Below are positions 16,684-27,557 of a DNA stretch of 64,000 nt, in pieces. Within the stretch, counting starts at the first letter, position 1; each line of letters starts with the position of its first letter. The position numbers were made by a program, and so were the translations under genes. The stretch lies in NCBI RefSeq assembly GCF_044324785.1, contig NZ_CP172127.1; one strand, written 5' to 3'. This DNA is from Escherichia coli. GTDB lineage: Bacteria > Pseudomonadota > Gammaproteobacteria > Enterobacterales > Enterobacteriaceae. Under the pieces are notes generated by a model. That model saw nothing but the letters and a program-made list of their open reading frames with translations. It was not told the origin of the DNA and ran no database searches.

Positions 16684-16724
16684 AAGAACCTGTCTGAATA
16701 TCAAACAGACAGGTTCTTTATTTA
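16684..16724 (+). terminator. Intrinsic terminator after kdgR
   Basis: aagaacctgtctg-aatatcaaa-cagacaggttctt perfect 13-bp stem followed by TTTATTT. Confidence 0.8.
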
Positions 16725-16819
16725 GCATGAGAAAAATAAAGTTGAAGGTGGCGTTATATTAAACGCACTTCCGATAAGAATATTTTACTCATGAGTGAGA
16801 ATCTGGTTATTTATTACCC

Positions 16820-22964: not shown

Positions 22965-23936
22965 TTACTTATCGATTTTGCTGATCAGATCCATCATTTT
23001 CAGTTTCGGATCGGTGGAAACCTTACGGACTTCCAGCTCAATACCGCGCGCATTCAGTTTCTTGAACGCCTCGATATCTTTTTCATCAACCGAAACCGCG
23101 TTATTCACCTGGGTTTTACCCTGACGGAATGCCATACCACCGACGTTAACAGAGGTGATTTTCACGCCGCCTTCAACGAGACGCTCTACATCTGTTGGGT
23201 TGGTAAATAACAGCATTACACGTTCGCCAGCATATTTCGGGTTGTTGTAGACGCGAATCATTTTGGCAACATCAACTACGTGTGCTGTTACGCCCGGAGG
23301 TGCAACCTGGGTGAGCAGTGTCTTACGAACGGTATCCGCAGCCACTTCATCACTAACAACAATAATACGGGAGACATTGGTTTCTTTGGTCCAGCGGGTG
23401 GCGACCTGACCGTGAATCAGACGGTCGTCGATACGCGCAAGGCCAATAACCATGTAGTCGTTTGGCCCCATTGGTTTTGCCGGAGTTGGAGCCGCTTTTG
23501 GTGCTGCGGCAGCGGGTGCTGGCGCAGCTTTTTCAACCGGTTTGGCTTTCAGTGCTTTCACGCCTTCACGGCCTGTTTCTACTGCCAGCGCAACCAGTTC
23601 ATCAAAGCTTGGGTCATCATCACGGGCCATTAACGTTTCCACGAGCATTGGAATGTTAACGCCTGCAATGACTTCATAATGCTCTTTGTCGACGACAATG
23701 CGGCTGGCAGCATTGAACGGGCTGCCTCCCCATGTATCAACGAGAAACAGCACGCCTTTAGTGGTGTCGAGTTTTGCCAACTGAGCGTTGTACTTTTCAA
23801 TCAGCGTTTCGGCATTTTCACCTGGAACGAAATCGATCCAGCCGACGTTTTCCTGCTCGCCTAACAGCATTTCTGCCGTTTTAAGCAACTGCTCTGCAGC
23901 CCAACCATGTGTGCCTATAACAATAGCAATGGTCAC
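22965..23936 (-). CDS. manX: PTS mannose-specific EIIAB component
   Basis: 323-aa ORF MTIAIVIGTHGWAAEQLLKTAEMLLGEQENVGWIDF... with Ala/Pro-rich hinge (KAAPAPAAAAPKAAPTPAKP) between the IIA and IIB domains. Confidence 0.9.
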   Translation of the reverse strand: MTIAIVIGTHGWAAEQLLKTAEMLLGEQENVGWIDFVPGENAETLIEKYNAQLAKLDTTKGVLFLVDTWGGSPFNAASRIVVDKEHYEVIAGVNIPMLVETLMARDDDPSFDELVALAVETGREGVKALKAKPVEKAAPAPAAAAPKAAPTPAKPMGPNDYMVIGLARIDDRLIHGQVATRWTKETNVSRIIVVSDEVAADTVRKTLLTQVAPPGVTAHVVDVAKMIRVYNNPKYAGERVMLLFTNPTDVERLVEGGVKITSVNVGGMAFRQGKTQVNNAVSVDEKDIEAFKKLNARGIELEVRKVSTDPKLKMMDLISKIDK

Positions 23937-24050
23937 TTGCTACCTCCTTTATTATCGTTAACACCTCAACGTGCCAGATGTATTTTTGAATCGTCGTCCA
24001 CAATCGAATCGATTCAGATAAGGGCTACAACCAAAAACCCCTGCGTTTCG

Positions 24051-24101
24051 CGATTTATTTTAGATATCGAAAAAATTATTTTATGTGATGAAGATCCGTA
24101 A
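24051..24101. promoter_or_regulatory. Candidate Mlc/NagC-type operator and CRP-like half-site in the manX-yoaE divergent region
   Basis: TTATTTTAGATATCGAAAAAATTATTTTA (A/T arms around a central CG) followed by TGTGATGAAGATCCGTA; manX is a known Mlc/CRP target. Pattern-based only. Confidence 0.3.
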
Positions 24102-24398
24102 TTTAACTTTCGATTAGCAGAAATTTCGAAAGGTAAAATATCCTTGTCACATTCGTTTGCAAAGGAAGGTAAATCTTTGCCAAATCAGAGGCGTCTCTGA
24201 TATGTTTAACTCCCGTTTAACAACCATGGAGTATAGGGCAGTAGCCCGCAGTATGGATCGTCACCGACGTCATTTCAGCATCAGGCCTTTTAACGCCTGC
24301 CTTTCTGGCACTCTATGCCGCACCTTTCGTTTGCATTTTGTCGTTACGCCTGCATTATTTCTGGCGTCGAATAGCTATTCCTTAAGCAGGAGCTTGTC

Positions 24399-25955
24399 AT
24401 GGAATTCTTAATGGACCCCTCAATTTGGGCGGGGCTACTCACGCTTGTTGTTCTCGAAATTGTGCTGGGTATCGATAACCTGGTCTTCATCGCCATTCTT
24501 GCTGACAAACTGCCGCCAAAACAACGCGATAAAGCGCGTTTGCTGGGATTATCACTGGCGCTGATTATGCGTCTGGGGCTGCTGTCGCTGATTTCATGGA
24601 TGGTCACGCTGACCAAACCGCTATTTACCGTCATGGATTTCTCCTTCTCCGGACGTGACCTGATTATGTTGTTCGGGGGAATATTCTTGCTGTTCAAAGC
24701 AACAACCGAACTGCATGAACGGCTGGAAAACCGCGATCATGATTCCGGTCACGGTAAAGGCTACGCCAGTTTCTGGGTGGTCGTCACACAGATCGTCATC
24801 CTTGACGCCGTCTTCTCGTTGGATGCGGTAATTACGGCAGTAGGGATGGTTAACCATCTGCCAGTGATGATGGCGGCGGTAGTGATTGCGATGGCGGTTA
24901 TGCTGCTGGCATCGAAACCGCTGACGCGATTTGTTAACCAGCATCCAACGGTGGTGGTGCTCTGTCTGAGCTTCCTGTTAATGATTGGTCTGAGTCTGGT
25001 GGCAGAAGGTTTCGGTTTCCACATTCCGAAAGGTTACCTGTATGCCGCGATTGGCTTCTCGATCATCATCGAAGTGTTTAACCAGATTGCGCGTCGCAAC
25101 TTTATTCGTCACCAGTCGACTTTGCCGCTGCGAGCGCGTACTGCCGATGCCATCCTGCGTTTGATGGGCGGGAAACGTCAGGCCAATGTTCAGCACGATG
25201 CCGATAACCCGATGCCGATGCCGATCCCGGAAGGTGCATTTGCCGAAGAAGAACGTTACATGATTAACGGCGTACTCACGCTGGCGTCGCGTTCTCTGCG
25301 CGGGATCATGACGCCGCGCGGTGAAATAAGCTGGGTTGACGCTAATCTCGGGGTCGATGAAATCCGCGAGCAGCTGCTCTCCTCACCGCACAGCCTGTTC
25401 CCGGTATGTCGCGGTGAACTGGATGAAATCATCGGAATCGTACGTGCTAAAGAACTGCTGGTGGCGCTGGAAGAGGGCGTTGATGTGGCGGCGATTGCTT
25501 CGGCGTCTCCGGCGATTATCGTCCCTGAAACCCTCGATCCGATCAACCTGCTGGGCGTGCTGCGTCGTGCTCGCGGGAGCTTTGTTATCGTGACCAACGA
25601 GTTTGGTGTGGTACAAGGCTTGGTCACGCCGCTGGATGTGCTGGAAGCCATTGCGGGTGAATTCCCGGACGCTGACGAAACGCCGGAAATCATTACTGAT
25701 GGTGACGGCTGGCTGGTAAAAGGCGGTACAGATTTGCATGCCTTGCAGCAGGCGCTTGATGTTGAGCACCTTGCCGATGACGATGATATCGCGACGGTCG
25801 CGGGCCTCGTGATCTCGGCAAATGGTCACATTCCCCGTGTGGGCGATGTGATTGATGTAGGTCCACTGCATATCACCATCATTGAAGCCAATGATTATCG
25901 TGTTGATCTGGTTCGCATTGTTAAAGAGCAACCGGCGCACGATGAAGATGAGTAA
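24399..25955 (+). CDS. yoaE: TerC-family membrane protein with CBS/CorC C-terminal domains, YoaE
   Basis: 518-aa ORF: N-terminal polytopic TerC-like half, C-terminal soluble CBS-pair and transporter-associated region. Confidence 0.9.
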
Positions 25956-25958
25956 GCG

Positions 25959-27557
25959 TTAACGTAACGGCATAACGGGCGTGATATGTCCATTATGCCG
26001 GGCGGGCGGCGGTTGGCTGCCCGCCAGCCATTTGGGAAAATCACGTAGCGGCATCGGCTGTGCGTACAAATACCCTTGCAAAATATGCACGCCATGACGG
26101 CGCAAATACTTCGCCTGTTCTTGCGTTTCCACGCCCTCCGCCACCAGTTCAATATTCAGTCTTTGCCCCAGCGCGATGATGATATCGGTCACCGTCGAGT
26201 TAACCGCGTCAGAACCTATAGCTGCGGTAAATGACTTATCAATTTTCAGCACGTCAGGACGTAATGTTTCAAGCCAGGAAAACGAGCTGTTGCCGGTGCC
26301 GAAGTCATCAATCGCCAGTTTGACGTTTTTACGATGCAGCTCGCGGGCAATCCGATAATCCACATCCAGTAAGGCATCGCGTTCGGTGATTTCGAGGATC
26401 AGTTGCTGAATCGGGTGAGCGCTAAACCAGTACTGATTGAGATCTTTTATCAGCACACCACGGCGAAAATGGCTGGGTGCGACGTTAATGCCAACATGAA
26501 ACTGACTACTCATAGGGAAAACATGGCGCTGACGAATGGTTTCTGCCATCACATAGCGGGTCAGTGGCACAATTAAATGATGTTCTTCCGCGATAGGAAT
26601 AAACACATCCGGTGAAATCCAGCCCTGACGCGGATTGTTCCAGCGCAGCAAAATCTCTACACCAATACATTGCTGGCTGCGCGCATTAAGCAAAGGCTGA
26701 CAGAACAATTCGAACTCATGTTGCGCCAGGCCCAGATTGATTTCACGGGAAAAACTCATCCGGTAAGCGGTCGCCAGCCAGGCGATATAGCCCACAAGTA
26801 AACTTAGAAGCACCGCCAGCGGTAATTGTGTTGGAAGATAGTGCCATGCCAGCGCCGTAGCCCCCGGACCATTAACGTTAATGGTAAAAGGAAAGCGTTG
26901 CGAAGAAACCTGATAGTTTTCATTGTCTTCAGGTTGCGGAAGGGTATCTACCAGCCCATTACCATAGAGCAAATGCCGATTGTCCACCGTCAGGCTGGCG
27001 CTACTGATTTGCGGCAGTTGTGGCTCAAGCAGCATTGCCGCCAGTAAGTCGATGTTAATCATCTCCATGACCCCAGCATTGCTACTGCCCGCTGCTGGCG
27101 TCCATTGAATCAAAACCGGACTGCCTTTAATCAGGGCACGGTCGATCGTCAGGCGTAAAAGTGGTTGCGGTGCAGGAAGTTCAGCCAGAATGTCCACGAC
27201 GGGCACATTGCGATAACCAAAAATGCTGGAGCAATAAAGTGTGCCGTCTTGCACCAGGCCAATGGATCGCACAGTTTGGAGTTTTGCCGCCTGTTTACGT
27301 AATGGCAAATGGGCGACAGAGCAGGGCAGACCAATTAGCGGAAGTAAGACTTCGCTACCTGCCTGTAGGGGAAGCAGTACTTTATCTAATTCCTCTACAG
27401 CGTGATTGGCGAATTGTACTACCCGTTGTTGATTTAAGTTACGCTGTGAAATAAATCGCACGCTCAGGGTCGAAGCGAGCGTAACGAGTGCGCAAATCGT
27501 ACAAACAATCATTCGATTACGGCGATAGGTTTTAATGATCCGTTGTGCTTTTTGCAT
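25959..27557 (-). CDS. pdeD: c-di-GMP phosphodiesterase PdeD (YoaD), CSS-motif sensor plus EAL domain
   Basis: Track ORF 25959..27587 trimmed to MQKAQRIIKTYRRNRMIVCTI... (532 aa); EAL-domain motifs EITER, DDFGTG and QGYLY visible. Confidence 0.85.
   Translation of the reverse strand: MQKAQRIIKTYRRNRMIVCTICALVTLASTLSVRFISQRNLNQQRVVQFANHAVEELDKVLLPLQAGSEVLLPLIGLPCSVAHLPLRKQAAKLQTVRSIGLVQDGTLYCSSIFGYRNVPVVDILAELPAPQPLLRLTIDRALIKGSPVLIQWTPAAGSSNAGVMEMINIDLLAAMLLEPQLPQISSASLTVDNRHLLYGNGLVDTLPQPEDNENYQVSSQRFPFTINVNGPGATALAWHYLPTQLPLAVLLSLLVGYIAWLATAYRMSFSREINLGLAQHEFELFCQPLLNARSQQCIGVEILLRWNNPRQGWISPDVFIPIAEEHHLIVPLTRYVMAETIRQRHVFPMSSQFHVGINVAPSHFRRGVLIKDLNQYWFSAHPIQQLILEITERDALLDVDYRIARELHRKNVKLAIDDFGTGNSSFSWLETLRPDVLKIDKSFTAAIGSDAVNSTVTDIIIALGQRLNIELVAEGVETQEQAKYLRRHGVHILQGYLYAQPMPLRDFPKWLAGSQPPPARHNGHITPVMPLR

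Follow-up and report, generated by a model that had tools for sequence, protein, structure and literature searches.

The closest described system for the DNA analysed here is the manXYZ promoter region of Escherichia coli K-12 (Plumbridge & Kolb 1991; Plumbridge 1998), whose published regulators are Mlc, NagC and CRP and in which the 5' untranslated region of manX is 115 nt long (PMC3089445). According to papers that cite those two studies, manX is regulated by Mlc and NagC; the title of the 1991 paper has NagC and CAP binding to the region, and control of manX by Mlc, NagC and CRP has been in print since 1991 and 1998. The manXYZ operon is reported to be repressed by Mlc (PMC10100716, for Salmonella; PMC8085971), genomic SELEX with CRP recovered manX (PMC3105977), and manXYZ-yobD is co-activated by Crp (PMC8085971). 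Mlc-type operators are defined as 23-bp quasi-palindromes with invariant TT at -6/-5 and AA at +5/+6, and the ±11 positions hold A or T in Mlc-type sites and C or G in high-affinity NagC sites (PMC4288165). At ptsG and in the Mlc regulon generally, CRP activation is combined with occlusion by Mlc, which is relieved by glucose transport. A second relevant system is the divergent nagE-nagBACD region, in which a CAP site lies between a pair of NagC operators and the DNA forms a loop, and cooperative binding has been described for nagE/nagB (PMC4288165). Leader open reading frames (ORFs) such as mgtL, which precedes the cation transporter gene mgtA, and pssL, which overlaps pssA, are the described counterparts of a short ORF that lies before yoaE.

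In the window (the whole 64,000-nucleotide stretch of E. coli DNA that was analysed), manX and yoaE diverge from a spacer at 23937-24398, which is exactly 462 bp long, as the original prediction had it. All 462/462 bp are identical to positions 1901586-1902047 of E. coli K-12 MG1655 (100% identity), so that the DNA, the genes and their published regulators are those of the K-12 region with zero differences within the spacer; the host strain is not K-12, because the flanking 3.7 kb contain 31 substitutions relative to it. The locus was found in 5423 of 5426 complete E. coli genomes, and conservation was assessed on 78 distinct Enterobacteriaceae spacers, in which the length is tightly kept (402-581 bp). 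Footprints of conservation in this set fall on the proximal operator (O1), the CRP site, a Cra-like palindrome, a CpxR box, a PhoP box, an extended -10 element and the start of yoaL. Sequences, positions, conservation and pattern statistics were computed here, and protein binding, the direction of regulation, the 115-nt leader and the coupling of yoaL to yoaE are taken from the papers cited. It is very probable that the site flagged by the original prediction is the core of the manXYZ promoter and that both halves of the spacer are organized as mapped here. The locus is a known and well-studied control region, with elements on both the manX and the yoaE side that have all been published or annotated, and the main finding is correct, ordinary and already known. 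The manX half comprises the following features:

23936, minus strand: GTG start codon of manX.
23937-24051, minus strand: 5' untranslated region of manX, 115 nt, from the length given in PMC3089445.
23943-23949, minus strand: manX Shine-Dalgarno sequence AAGGAGG.
24006-24015, no strand: perfect 10-bp palindrome GAATCGATTC, a Cra (FruR)-like box, from a logo match and conservation.
24051, minus strand: manX transcription start, from the published 115-nt leader.
24062-24057, minus strand: manX -10 hexamer TAAAAT.
24054-24076, no strand: proximal Mlc/NagC (ROK-family) operator O1, from the operator definition of PMC4288165 and conservation.
24081-24102, no strand: CRP site TTATGTGATGAAGATCCGTAAT, from position, conservation and published work.
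24119-24141, no strand: candidate distal ROK-type operator O2, from a weight matrix and conservation.

The original prediction had recognized a site of the Mlc/NagC operator type, and this is borne out by the TT and AA positions, the A/T pairs at ±11, the conservation of the site and the published regulation. O1 is a 23-bp quasi-palindrome centred at 24065, with TT at 24059-24060 (-6/-5), AA at 24070-24071 (+5/+6) and, as in Mlc-type sites, T at both 24054 and 24076 (±11). TT-N9-AA with A/T-rich arms is present at this place in 78/78 spacers, and the equivalents of the two outer positions are never C or G (24054: A in 57, T in 21; 24076: A in 75, T in 3). The prediction had also placed A/T arms around a central CG; the arms stand, but the CG (24068-24069) is off-centre, at +3/+4 on the plus strand from the symmetry centre. 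The 29-mer that it quoted, TTATTTTAGATATCGAAAAAATTATTTTA, occurs once, at 24055-24083, and overruns the right arm of O1 into the flank of the CRP site.

The pattern W5-TT-N9-AA-W5 has four matches in 64 kb against 0.91 expected, and two of the four are two registers of O1. In a leave-one-out weight matrix trained on the other Mlc-regulon sites (two of ptsG, and those of ptsH, malT and mlc, with manX excluded), which were themselves chosen by the same TT-N9-AA pattern, O1 ranks first of approximately 64,000 window positions with 17.89 bits, the maximum from 50 shuffles being 17.75. The TT-N9-AA pattern finds one or two sites upstream of each of ptsG, ptsH, malT and mlc, and these promoters share with O1 the 23-bp form, TT/AA at ±5,6 and A/T at ±11 (for example, TTATTTTACTCTGTGTAATAAAT in ptsG and ATTATTTCGGAGCGCGAAAATAT in mlc). 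In contrast, the central 9 bp of O1, TAGATATCG, are unlike those of the other operators, and its score of 17.9 bits is somewhat lower than the 18.1-21.5 of the training sites. Other ROK-like 23-mers in the window, at 16717, 27434 and 55916, were rejected as operators, as they lie between convergent genes or within coding sequence.

Given the 115-nt leader, the centre of O1 falls at -14 and that of the CRP site (24091.5) at -40.5 of manX. At the start position, the manX strand carries a purine in 62/78 spacers, and the ribosome-binding-site block of manX is nearly invariant. RNA polymerase would start manX at 24051 from a good -10 hexamer and a poor -35 hexamer (CATAAA, 2/6 match), and because the -35 is poor, the promoter probably depends on cAMP-CRP, which would activate it from 24081-24102. 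This is a class II position, near -41.5 and overlapping the weak -35. A TGTGA-containing CRP-like half-site after the operator was part of the original prediction; the perfect TGTGA at 24084-24088 directly follows the 29-mer and is invariant, and the same form of the whole site recurs in 77/78 spacers. The other half, TCCGT, matches at 2/5 positions, and the site as a whole matches 13/22 positions of the CRP consensus. TGTGA-N6-TCACA with up to three mismatches has 216 matches in the window against 233 expected and is thus not above chance alone; support for the CRP site comes from position, conservation and published experiments rather than from rarity of the sequence. We take the coordinates of O1 and of the CRP site to be those of the footprints of Plumbridge & Kolb (1991) and Plumbridge (1998), on the basis of the operator definition and the leader length.

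O1 spans -25 to -3 and covers the -10 hexamer, and a ROK repressor acting as a dimer of dimers (chiefly Mlc, with NagC binding more weakly) would bind 24054-24076; there it would sit on both the -10 hexamer and the start and so block polymerase. During glucose transport, dephosphorylated PtsG would sequester Mlc and so free the manX promoter. A textbook catabolite- and glucose-controlled promoter was re-identified from raw sequence, which shows that the model behind the original prediction can recognize real operators. A minus-strand promoter TTGCAA-N16-TATTTT upstream of manX was rejected, as the spacing of its blocks varies among species, whereas the distance from the TGCAAA block to the yoaL promoter is constant.

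Upstream, O2 is centred at 24130 (-79), 65 bp from O1. It is sixth in the window by the matrix with 12.89 bits, a score that alone is not significant and is no better than that of the best shuffled-window site. TT-N9-AA with A/T-rich arms occurs at its place in 62/78 spacers and is missing in 16/78, and in relatives the symmetry of O2 is often closer, as in AATAATTTTGCGGCGCAAAAAATA of the Klebsiella/Raoultella group. The weaker O2 probably helps O1 through cooperative binding. Like nagE-nagBACD, the manX/yoaE spacer is divergent and has two ROK-type operators flanking a CRP site. In contrast to nagE-nagBACD, the module appears to serve only one promoter of the divergent pair, that of manX, and the manX operators, 65 bp apart, are Mlc-type with A/T at ±11, whereas those of nagE-nagBACD are NagC-type.

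Downstream of the manX start, the palindrome GAATCGATTC occurs once in the window, is centred at +41.5 of the manX mRNA and reads as TCTGAATCGATTCG on the manX strand. The latter agrees with the Cra logo GCTGAANCGNTTCA (PMC8085971) at 10/12 specified positions, a two-mismatch class that is frequent (13 in the window against 6.6 expected), and in 67/78 spacers the palindrome has at most one mismatch to TGAATCGATTCA. In Salmonella, manXYZ is repressed by Cra, which binds a 331-bp PmanX fragment and shifts it (PMC10100716). The palindrome in the transcribed leader may therefore be the exact site bound by Cra and may add repression linked to glycolytic flux.

The original prediction had remarked that the upstream region of yoaE is unusually long. 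This is true and has a known explanation, in that the region holds a promoter with CpxR and PhoP boxes as well as a 52-codon leader ORF, yoaL:

24149-24173, plus strand: CpxR site of the yoaL-yoaE promoter, made up of the equivalent of a Salmonella footprint (24149-24160) and a predicted box (24159-24173).
24177-24206, plus strand: predicted sigma-70 promoter of yoaL-yoaE, from a promoter scan.
24203-24219, plus strand: PhoP box TGTTTA-actcc-CGTTTA (TGTTTAactccCGTTTA), identical to the Shigella flexneri yoaE site.
24227-24247, plus strand: yoaL ribosome-binding region, from conservation of its layout.
24253-24411, plus strand: yoaL leader ORF, 52 codons, from RefSeq annotation and Pfam PF22867.
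24259-24319, plus strand: hairpins inside yoaL, from individual folds and pair counts.
24259-24269, plus strand: hairpin Ha, CGTC-ACC-GACG.
24282-24299, plus strand: hairpin H2, CAGGC...GCCTG.
24307-24319, plus strand: hairpin H3, GGCA...TGCC.
24388-24401, plus strand: yoaE Shine-Dalgarno sequence AGGAG (24388-24392) and ATG start codon (24399-24401), a conserved block.

With these, conserved elements account for every part of the 462-bp spacer: the Cra-like palindrome, O1, O2, and the CRP, CpxR, promoter, PhoP and yoaL leader elements. The yoaE half would be a separate unit, with a CpxR-activated and PhoP-repressed promoter starting near 24213. The predicted promoter has a -35 hexamer TTGCCA (24177-24182), an 18-bp spacer and an extended -10 TGaTATGTT (24198-24206), and TGnTATGTT is kept in 75/78 spacers. 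The CpxR site lies at about -64 to -40 of the predicted start; its box GCAAA-N5-GTAAA (GCAAAggaagGTAAA, 24159-24173) has one mismatch to GTAAA-N5-GTAAA and recurs with the same single mismatch in 77/78 spacers, with a variable spacer between the halves. In Salmonella, yoaE is positively controlled by CpxR and phosphorylated CpxR protects GCAAAGAGATGT, the protection being confined to a predicted site that adjoins the equivalent of the 24159-24173 box (PMC6952189).

The predicted PhoP box TGTTTAactccCGTTTA overlaps the -10 and the predicted start (-10 to +7) and has one mismatch to (T/G)GTTTA-N5-(T/G)GTTTA, a pattern with three matches in the window against 0.97 expected; a box with at most one mismatch is present in 65/78 spacers. 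The identical string is listed for S. flexneri yoaE, where the PhoP-P footprint on the promoter was reported to agree with the PhoP-box motif and where yoaE is up 7.1-fold by array (7.14 as mutant/wild type in the table) and 3.2-fold by qRT-PCR in a phoPQ mutant (PMC5775216). An mSphere paper states that PhoP up-regulates yoaE, which is the opposite of this Shigella table. The comparative map supports PhoP as a repressor of the yoaL-yoaE promoter, and this reading fits the reported role of YoaE (MgpA) in surviving excess magnesium. Activation by PhoP from the -35 position was rejected, since the hexamer at the distance that it would require, TATAGG and variants, lacks the final T and is not conserved as a -10, and the rise of yoaE in the phoPQ mutant also contradicts it. 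A PhoP-like repeat on the minus strand (24171-24187) was set aside in favour of the box at 24203-24219, as its second half is not conserved.

Part of the conservation of O1 can be explained by the promoter itself, since the -10 hexamer overlaps the operator, and similar A/T-rich 23-mers without an obvious regulatory role occur elsewhere in the window (one at 16717-16739, where the 3' ends of yobH and kdgR face each other, scores 17.85 bits). One could thus regard the quasi-palindrome as mere promoter DNA (a -10, A-tracts, an UP-like element or a nucleoid-protein site) whose likeness to an operator is incidental. However, conservation covers the full 23 bp with both arms and TT/AA in every spacer, well past the -10 hexamer, a matrix trained on other Mlc-regulon promoters puts O1 first, and manXYZ, reported to be repressed by Mlc, peaks with ptsG and ptsHI in glucose and lactose like the Mlc regulon; this explanation is therefore highly improbable. 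If O1 is an operator, its physiological repressor might instead be NagC, which would tie manXYZ to the availability of amino sugars rather than to glucose transport. The site logos of NagC and Mlc are essentially indistinguishable (PMC4288165), NagC binding to manX was, to judge from the title of Plumbridge & Kolb (1991), reported first, NagC has been described as a manXYZ repressor (PMC2806358), and glucosamine is transported by ManXYZ. Nevertheless, the ±11 positions carry the A/T signature of Mlc in E. coli as in almost every relative, whereas high-affinity NagC sites have C or G, and we regard a primary role of NagC at O1 as unlikely.

The third alternative accepts the Mlc/CRP module and has it control the divergent yoaL-yoaE promoter as well, or mainly, as a shared bidirectional region. 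The predicted starts of manX and yoaL-yoaE are separated by only 162 bp, the spacer varies little in length, and in the CRP SELEX study (PMC3105977) manX is among the known targets whose divergent neighbour was counted as a predicted target. From the predicted yoaL start, however, the CRP centre is at about -121.5 and O1 at about -148, outside the usual activating or occluding range, and the yoaE side has its own CpxR and PhoP sites at canonical distances; moreover, a literature search found no report of yoaE control by Mlc or CRP. A shared region is thus very unlikely, and we prefer the reading in which the Mlc/CRP module serves manX.

The yoaL ORF is present in 78/78 spacers with 40-55 codons, always begins with MD(R/P)HRR, and keeps its frame through all indels; YoaL matches Pfam PF22867 over 52/52 positions (E = 9.5e-41). 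Its stop codon TAA (24409-24411) lies 8-10 nt beyond the last base of the yoaE ATG, and in 76/78 spacers it ends 13 nt downstream of the A of that ATG. The start originally annotated, ATG 24202 (69 codons), lies inside the -10 hexamer, which fits its later correction, and the ATG at 24226 is not conserved; neither was accepted as the yoaL start. A stop codon in place of the yoaL start strongly lowers yoaE-lacZ (Weaver et al., bioRxiv 10.1101/511675). The translation of yoaE thus probably requires that ribosomes read yoaL, across its structured leader, to a stop just within yoaE.

The ribosome-binding region of yoaL consists of a Shine-Dalgarno sequence (T/A)GGAG (24227-24231), 4 nt, the hairpin H1 GGGC-AGTA-GCCC (24236-24247), 5 nt and the AUG. 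This layout, with a 4-bp stem, a loop of 3-4 nt and the same intervals of 4 and 5 nt, recurs in 76/78 spacers, and the H1 stem pairs in 100% of cells, with changes from C-G to U-G or U-A only. The Shine-Dalgarno sequence is 21 nt from the AUG, and no other such run is found within 12 nt of the AUG; folded H1 would bring it to a working distance of about 9 nt, and otherwise it would be out of reach.

Inside yoaL, the hairpins Ha, H2 and H3 recur in the minimum-energy folds calculated singly for 22 species. When the whole leader was aligned globally with MAFFT and given to RNAalifold, almost no consensus structure emerged, because sequence alignment misaligns the covarying stems, and individual folds with hand-defined helices were used in its place. 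In pair counts on alignment A1, 86.8% of cells are paired against 27-42% in slid controls, and changes on both sides of a pair occur in 68 cells against 19.9 in shuffles, a number that 0/500 shuffles reach. Pair 61-79 of H2, for example, is AU in 37, UA in 11, GC in 4, UG in 4 and CG in 1, and pair 91-97 of H3 is AU in 21, GC in 21 and GU in 7. A terminator scan of the spacer found none, which gives no support to transcription attenuation of the classical kind at yoaL. No conserved masking partner was found for the yoaE Shine-Dalgarno sequence (mean pairing probability 0.47, with partners that differ between species). The manganese riboswitch yybP-ykoY was considered because YoaE has a TerC domain (together with CBS and CorC_HlyC domains); its Rfam covariance model had no match at 23000-25500 on either strand, and an Rfam scan of the same interval (E up to 1, both strands) found no riboswitch in the yoaE leader, its sole match being a chance Alpha_RBS inside manX.

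The conserved architecture of this leader, in which H1 bridges the Shine-Dalgarno sequence and the AUG and covarying hairpins follow, is the only modestly new point of our analysis; the comparative map as a whole has some practical value, and the main finding adds little new. We tentatively raise the possibility, doubtful as it is, that the yoaL leader acts as a translational switch that responds to a signal and controls YoaE (MgpA), a magnesium-protection protein, and is not merely a passive coupling device. The stability of H1, the nascent MDRHRR peptide (with invariant CGU and CGA arginine codons) or H2/H3 could set the number of ribosomes that reach the yoaE start, and the signal could be Mg2+, polyamines or alkaline pH; a literature search found no report of any of this. 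Work on the regulation of mgpA, which a 2025 Salmonella paper called still unclear, could start concretely from the architecture of the leader. As in mgtL-mgtA and pssL-pssA, a short translated ORF lies in the 5' leader, here that of the cation-homeostasis gene yoaE (mgpA), overlaps its start and affects the downstream gene through its translation. In contrast to mgtL-type leaders, neither a terminator nor consistent anti-Shine-Dalgarno pairing was found for yoaL, and its conserved peptide is basic (MDRHRR), whereas MgtL is cited as being of the acidic or proline-rich type.

One half of the manX–yoaE spacer is the known manXYZ promoter, in which a Mlc/NagC operator lies over the -10 element next to a class II CRP site, and the rest is the yoaL-yoaE leader with its control by CpxR and PhoP, likewise known. 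The original prediction recognised the former correctly; this main finding is already known and holds no surprise for a specialist. The manZ, manY and manX genes are on the minus strand of the window, and between the GTG start of manX (23936, minus strand) and the ATG of yoaE (24399, plus strand) the spacer (23937-24398) measures exactly 462 bp, as claimed; the quoted 29-mer is unique, at 24055-24083, with TGTGA immediately after it (24084-24088). All 462 bp are identical to K-12 MG1655 (1901586-1902047), and a 701-bp query across the spacer gave matches of at least 99% identity in 5423 of 5426 complete E. coli genomes. The flanks (about 3.2-3.7 kb) show 31 differences from K-12, mostly in yoaE, as against 0/462 in the spacer. 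For comparison, 80 loci of YoaE relatives were fetched from different Enterobacteriaceae species; manX and yoaE were divergent neighbours in 78, the remaining 2 being interrupted by contig ends. Spacer length across these loci was 402-581 bp, and alignment of the 78 distinct spacers revealed sharp footprints with variable DNA in between.

The manX side carries the following features:
24006-24015: perfect palindrome GAATCGATTC, centred at +41.5 in the transcribed manX leader
24054-24076: O1, the proximal operator, TTTATTTTAGATATCGAAAAAAT, centre 24065
24062-24057, minus strand: manX -10, TAAAAT, a good match
17 bp upstream of the -10, minus strand: manX -35, CATAAA, a poor match
24081-24102: CRP site TTATGTGATGAAGATCCGTAAT, centre 24091.5, which is -40.5 of manX, the class II position
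24119-24141: O2, a ROK-type site, centre -79, 65 bp from O1

A good -10 combined with a poor -35 is the usual layout of activator-dependent promoters. Because the manX 5' UTR is 115 nt long (PMC3089445), transcription starts at 24051 on the minus strand; O1 is then centred at -14 and extends from -25 to -3, and therefore covers the -10 hexamer. Mlc/NagC sites are 23-bp quasi-palindromes, invariant only at TT (-6/-5) and AA (+5/+6), with A or T at ±11 in Mlc sites and C or G in strong NagC sites (PMC4288165), and O1 has every published hallmark of an Mlc operator (TT, AA and A/T at ±11). The predicted operator form with A/T arms was thus right, but the CG is not central, lying at +3/+4 (-4/-3 on the manX strand). 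The pattern W5-TT-N9-AA-W5 matches 4 times in 64 kb against 0.91 expected, two of the four being both registers of O1; in K-12, ptsG, ptsH, malT and mlc each have one or two matches to it in their upstream regions. With a weight matrix built from the five K-12 sites so found, manX being left out, O1 ranked first of about 64,000 positions (17.89 bits; the best score among 50 shuffles was 17.75). TT-N9-AA with A/T-rich arms is present in 78/78 spacers, 24055-24064 and 24071-24075 being nearly invariant, and manXYZ-yobD has been reported as Mlc-repressed and Crp co-activated (PMC8085971). At 17.85 bits on the Mlc matrix, the score of the 23-mer TTTATTTAGCATGAGAAAAATAA at 16717-16739 is as high as that of O1; K-12 collinearity puts this 23-mer in the gap between yobH and kdgR, at the 3' end of both, and it probably matches by chance, being rich in A/T.

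The halves of the CRP site are a perfect TGTGA and a weak TCCGT. CRP-type cores with up to 3 mismatches numbered 216 versus 233 expected, so that the sequence alone is not rarer than chance, and the case for the predicted CRP-like half-site, which holds, is made by position, conservation and published work: TGTGA and GATCCGTAA are invariant or almost so, the same form recurs in 77/78 spacers, and CRP genomic SELEX recovered manX (PMC3105977). Elsewhere, at 27434-27460, a ROK-like 23-mer (15.85 bits) is followed directly by a near-consensus CRP core, TGTGAAATAAATCGCA (1 mismatch), both inside the minus-strand coding sequence of pdeD, toward its 5' end.

In E. coli, O2 scores 12.89 bits (rank 6 in the window), which alone is without significance; a site of its form is found at the same place in 62/78 spacers, often as a better palindrome, and we read it from these sequences as a candidate distal operator. 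The leader palindrome is nearly invariant, with at most one mismatch to TGAATCGATTCA in 67/78 spacers, and it matches 10 of the 12 positions in the Cra logo GCTGAANCGNTTCA, a putative Cra-like site. Salmonella Cra is a repressor of manXYZ that binds a PmanX fragment, and the study predicted a Cra box upstream of manX (PMC10100716).

The upstream region of yoaE, rightly noted as long, is occupied by the gene's own promoter with CpxR and PhoP sites and by the yoaL leader ORF:
24149-24160: equivalent of the CpxR footprint, adjoining GCAAA-N5-GTAAA (24159-24173)
24177-24182 and 24201-24206, plus strand: yoaL-yoaE promoter from a promoter scan, -35 TTGCCA, 18-bp spacer, TATGTT preceded by TG
24203-24219: PhoP box TGTTTAactccCGTTTA, overlying the -10 and the inferred start
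24227-24231: yoaL Shine-Dalgarno, (A/T)GGAG, 21 nt from the AUG
24236-24247: invariant hairpin, 4-bp stem GGGC-loop-GCCC, between the yoaL Shine-Dalgarno and AUG
24253-24411, plus strand: yoaL, 52 codons (RefSeq annotation; Pfam PF22867 match)
24282-24299: H2, a hairpin within yoaL, recurring in individual folds and covarying
24307-24319: H3, likewise within yoaL, recurring and covarying

TGnTATGTT, the extended -10, recurs in 75/78 spacers and would place the transcription start near 24213. GCAAA-N5-GTAAA is kept in 77/78, with a variable spacer between its halves; CpxR-P is an activator of yoaE in Salmonella Enteritidis, with its footprint on GCAAAGAGATGT (PMC6952189). E. coli GZ04-0086, 1 of the 5423 genomes, has a 776-bp IS1 insertion within the CpxR-type box, upstream of the yoaL promoter (right junction equivalent to 24163), which would cut yoaE off from CpxR control.

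The PhoP box is identical in every letter to the yoaE site given for Shigella flexneri; in that species PhoP-P footprints the yoaE promoter and the mutant/wild-type ratio of yoaE is 7.14 (PMC5775216); PhoP therefore represses yoaE, which fits a box over the -10 and start. According to an mSphere paper citing the Shigella work, PhoP up-regulates yoaE; the Shigella table says the opposite. PhoP is active when magnesium is low. Its repression of yoaE makes biological sense, as YoaE (MgpA) guards against an excess of magnesium (PMC12421838).

The yoaL ORF was first annotated as 69 codons from ATG 24202 (PMC6001520); ribosome profiling shifted its start downstream, and a stop codon in place of the start strongly lowered yoaE-lacZ (bioRxiv 10.1101/511675). 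It is present in 78/78 spacers (40-55 codons), always starts MD(R/P)HRR and has invariant CGU and CGA arginine codons among the first six (MDRHRR). Its stop codon is just beyond the yoaE ATG, ending 13 nt beyond the first base of that ATG in 76/78 spacers; the mid-peptide is variable, with the frame preserved by every indel. The target of selection is therefore translation across the leader, not the bulk of the peptide. yoaL could be coupled to yoaE by termination-reinitiation, by the opening of local structure or by shielding from Rho; a terminator scan of the spacer, an Rfam search of the yoaE leader and a search for a conserved partner of the yoaE Shine-Dalgarno found none of these elements.

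Between the Shine-Dalgarno and the AUG of yoaL, 76/78 spacers share one arrangement: 4 nt, the hairpin (two stem strands around a loop of 3-4 nt) and 5 nt. Folding of this hairpin would bring the effective Shine-Dalgarno spacing to about 9 nt. Two-sided changes in the hairpins numbered 68 cells compared with 19.9 in shuffles, and 86.8% of cells were paired versus 27-42% in slid controls; the H2/H3 covariation is supportive, not proof, as shared ancestry remains in the shuffle control. In the literature consulted we found no description of the 24227-24319 architecture (bridged Shine-Dalgarno, MDRHRR codons, covarying hairpins). The sole loose thread is that the bridged Shine-Dalgarno and conserved yoaL start may let the leader respond to magnesium or pH. 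The yybP-ykoY element is absent from yoaE, the yoaL leader ORF being there instead; two NCBIfam 'R_switched' subfamilies, YkoY and YjbE, whose names refer to riboswitch control, match the TerC domain of YoaE (24399-25955) below threshold.
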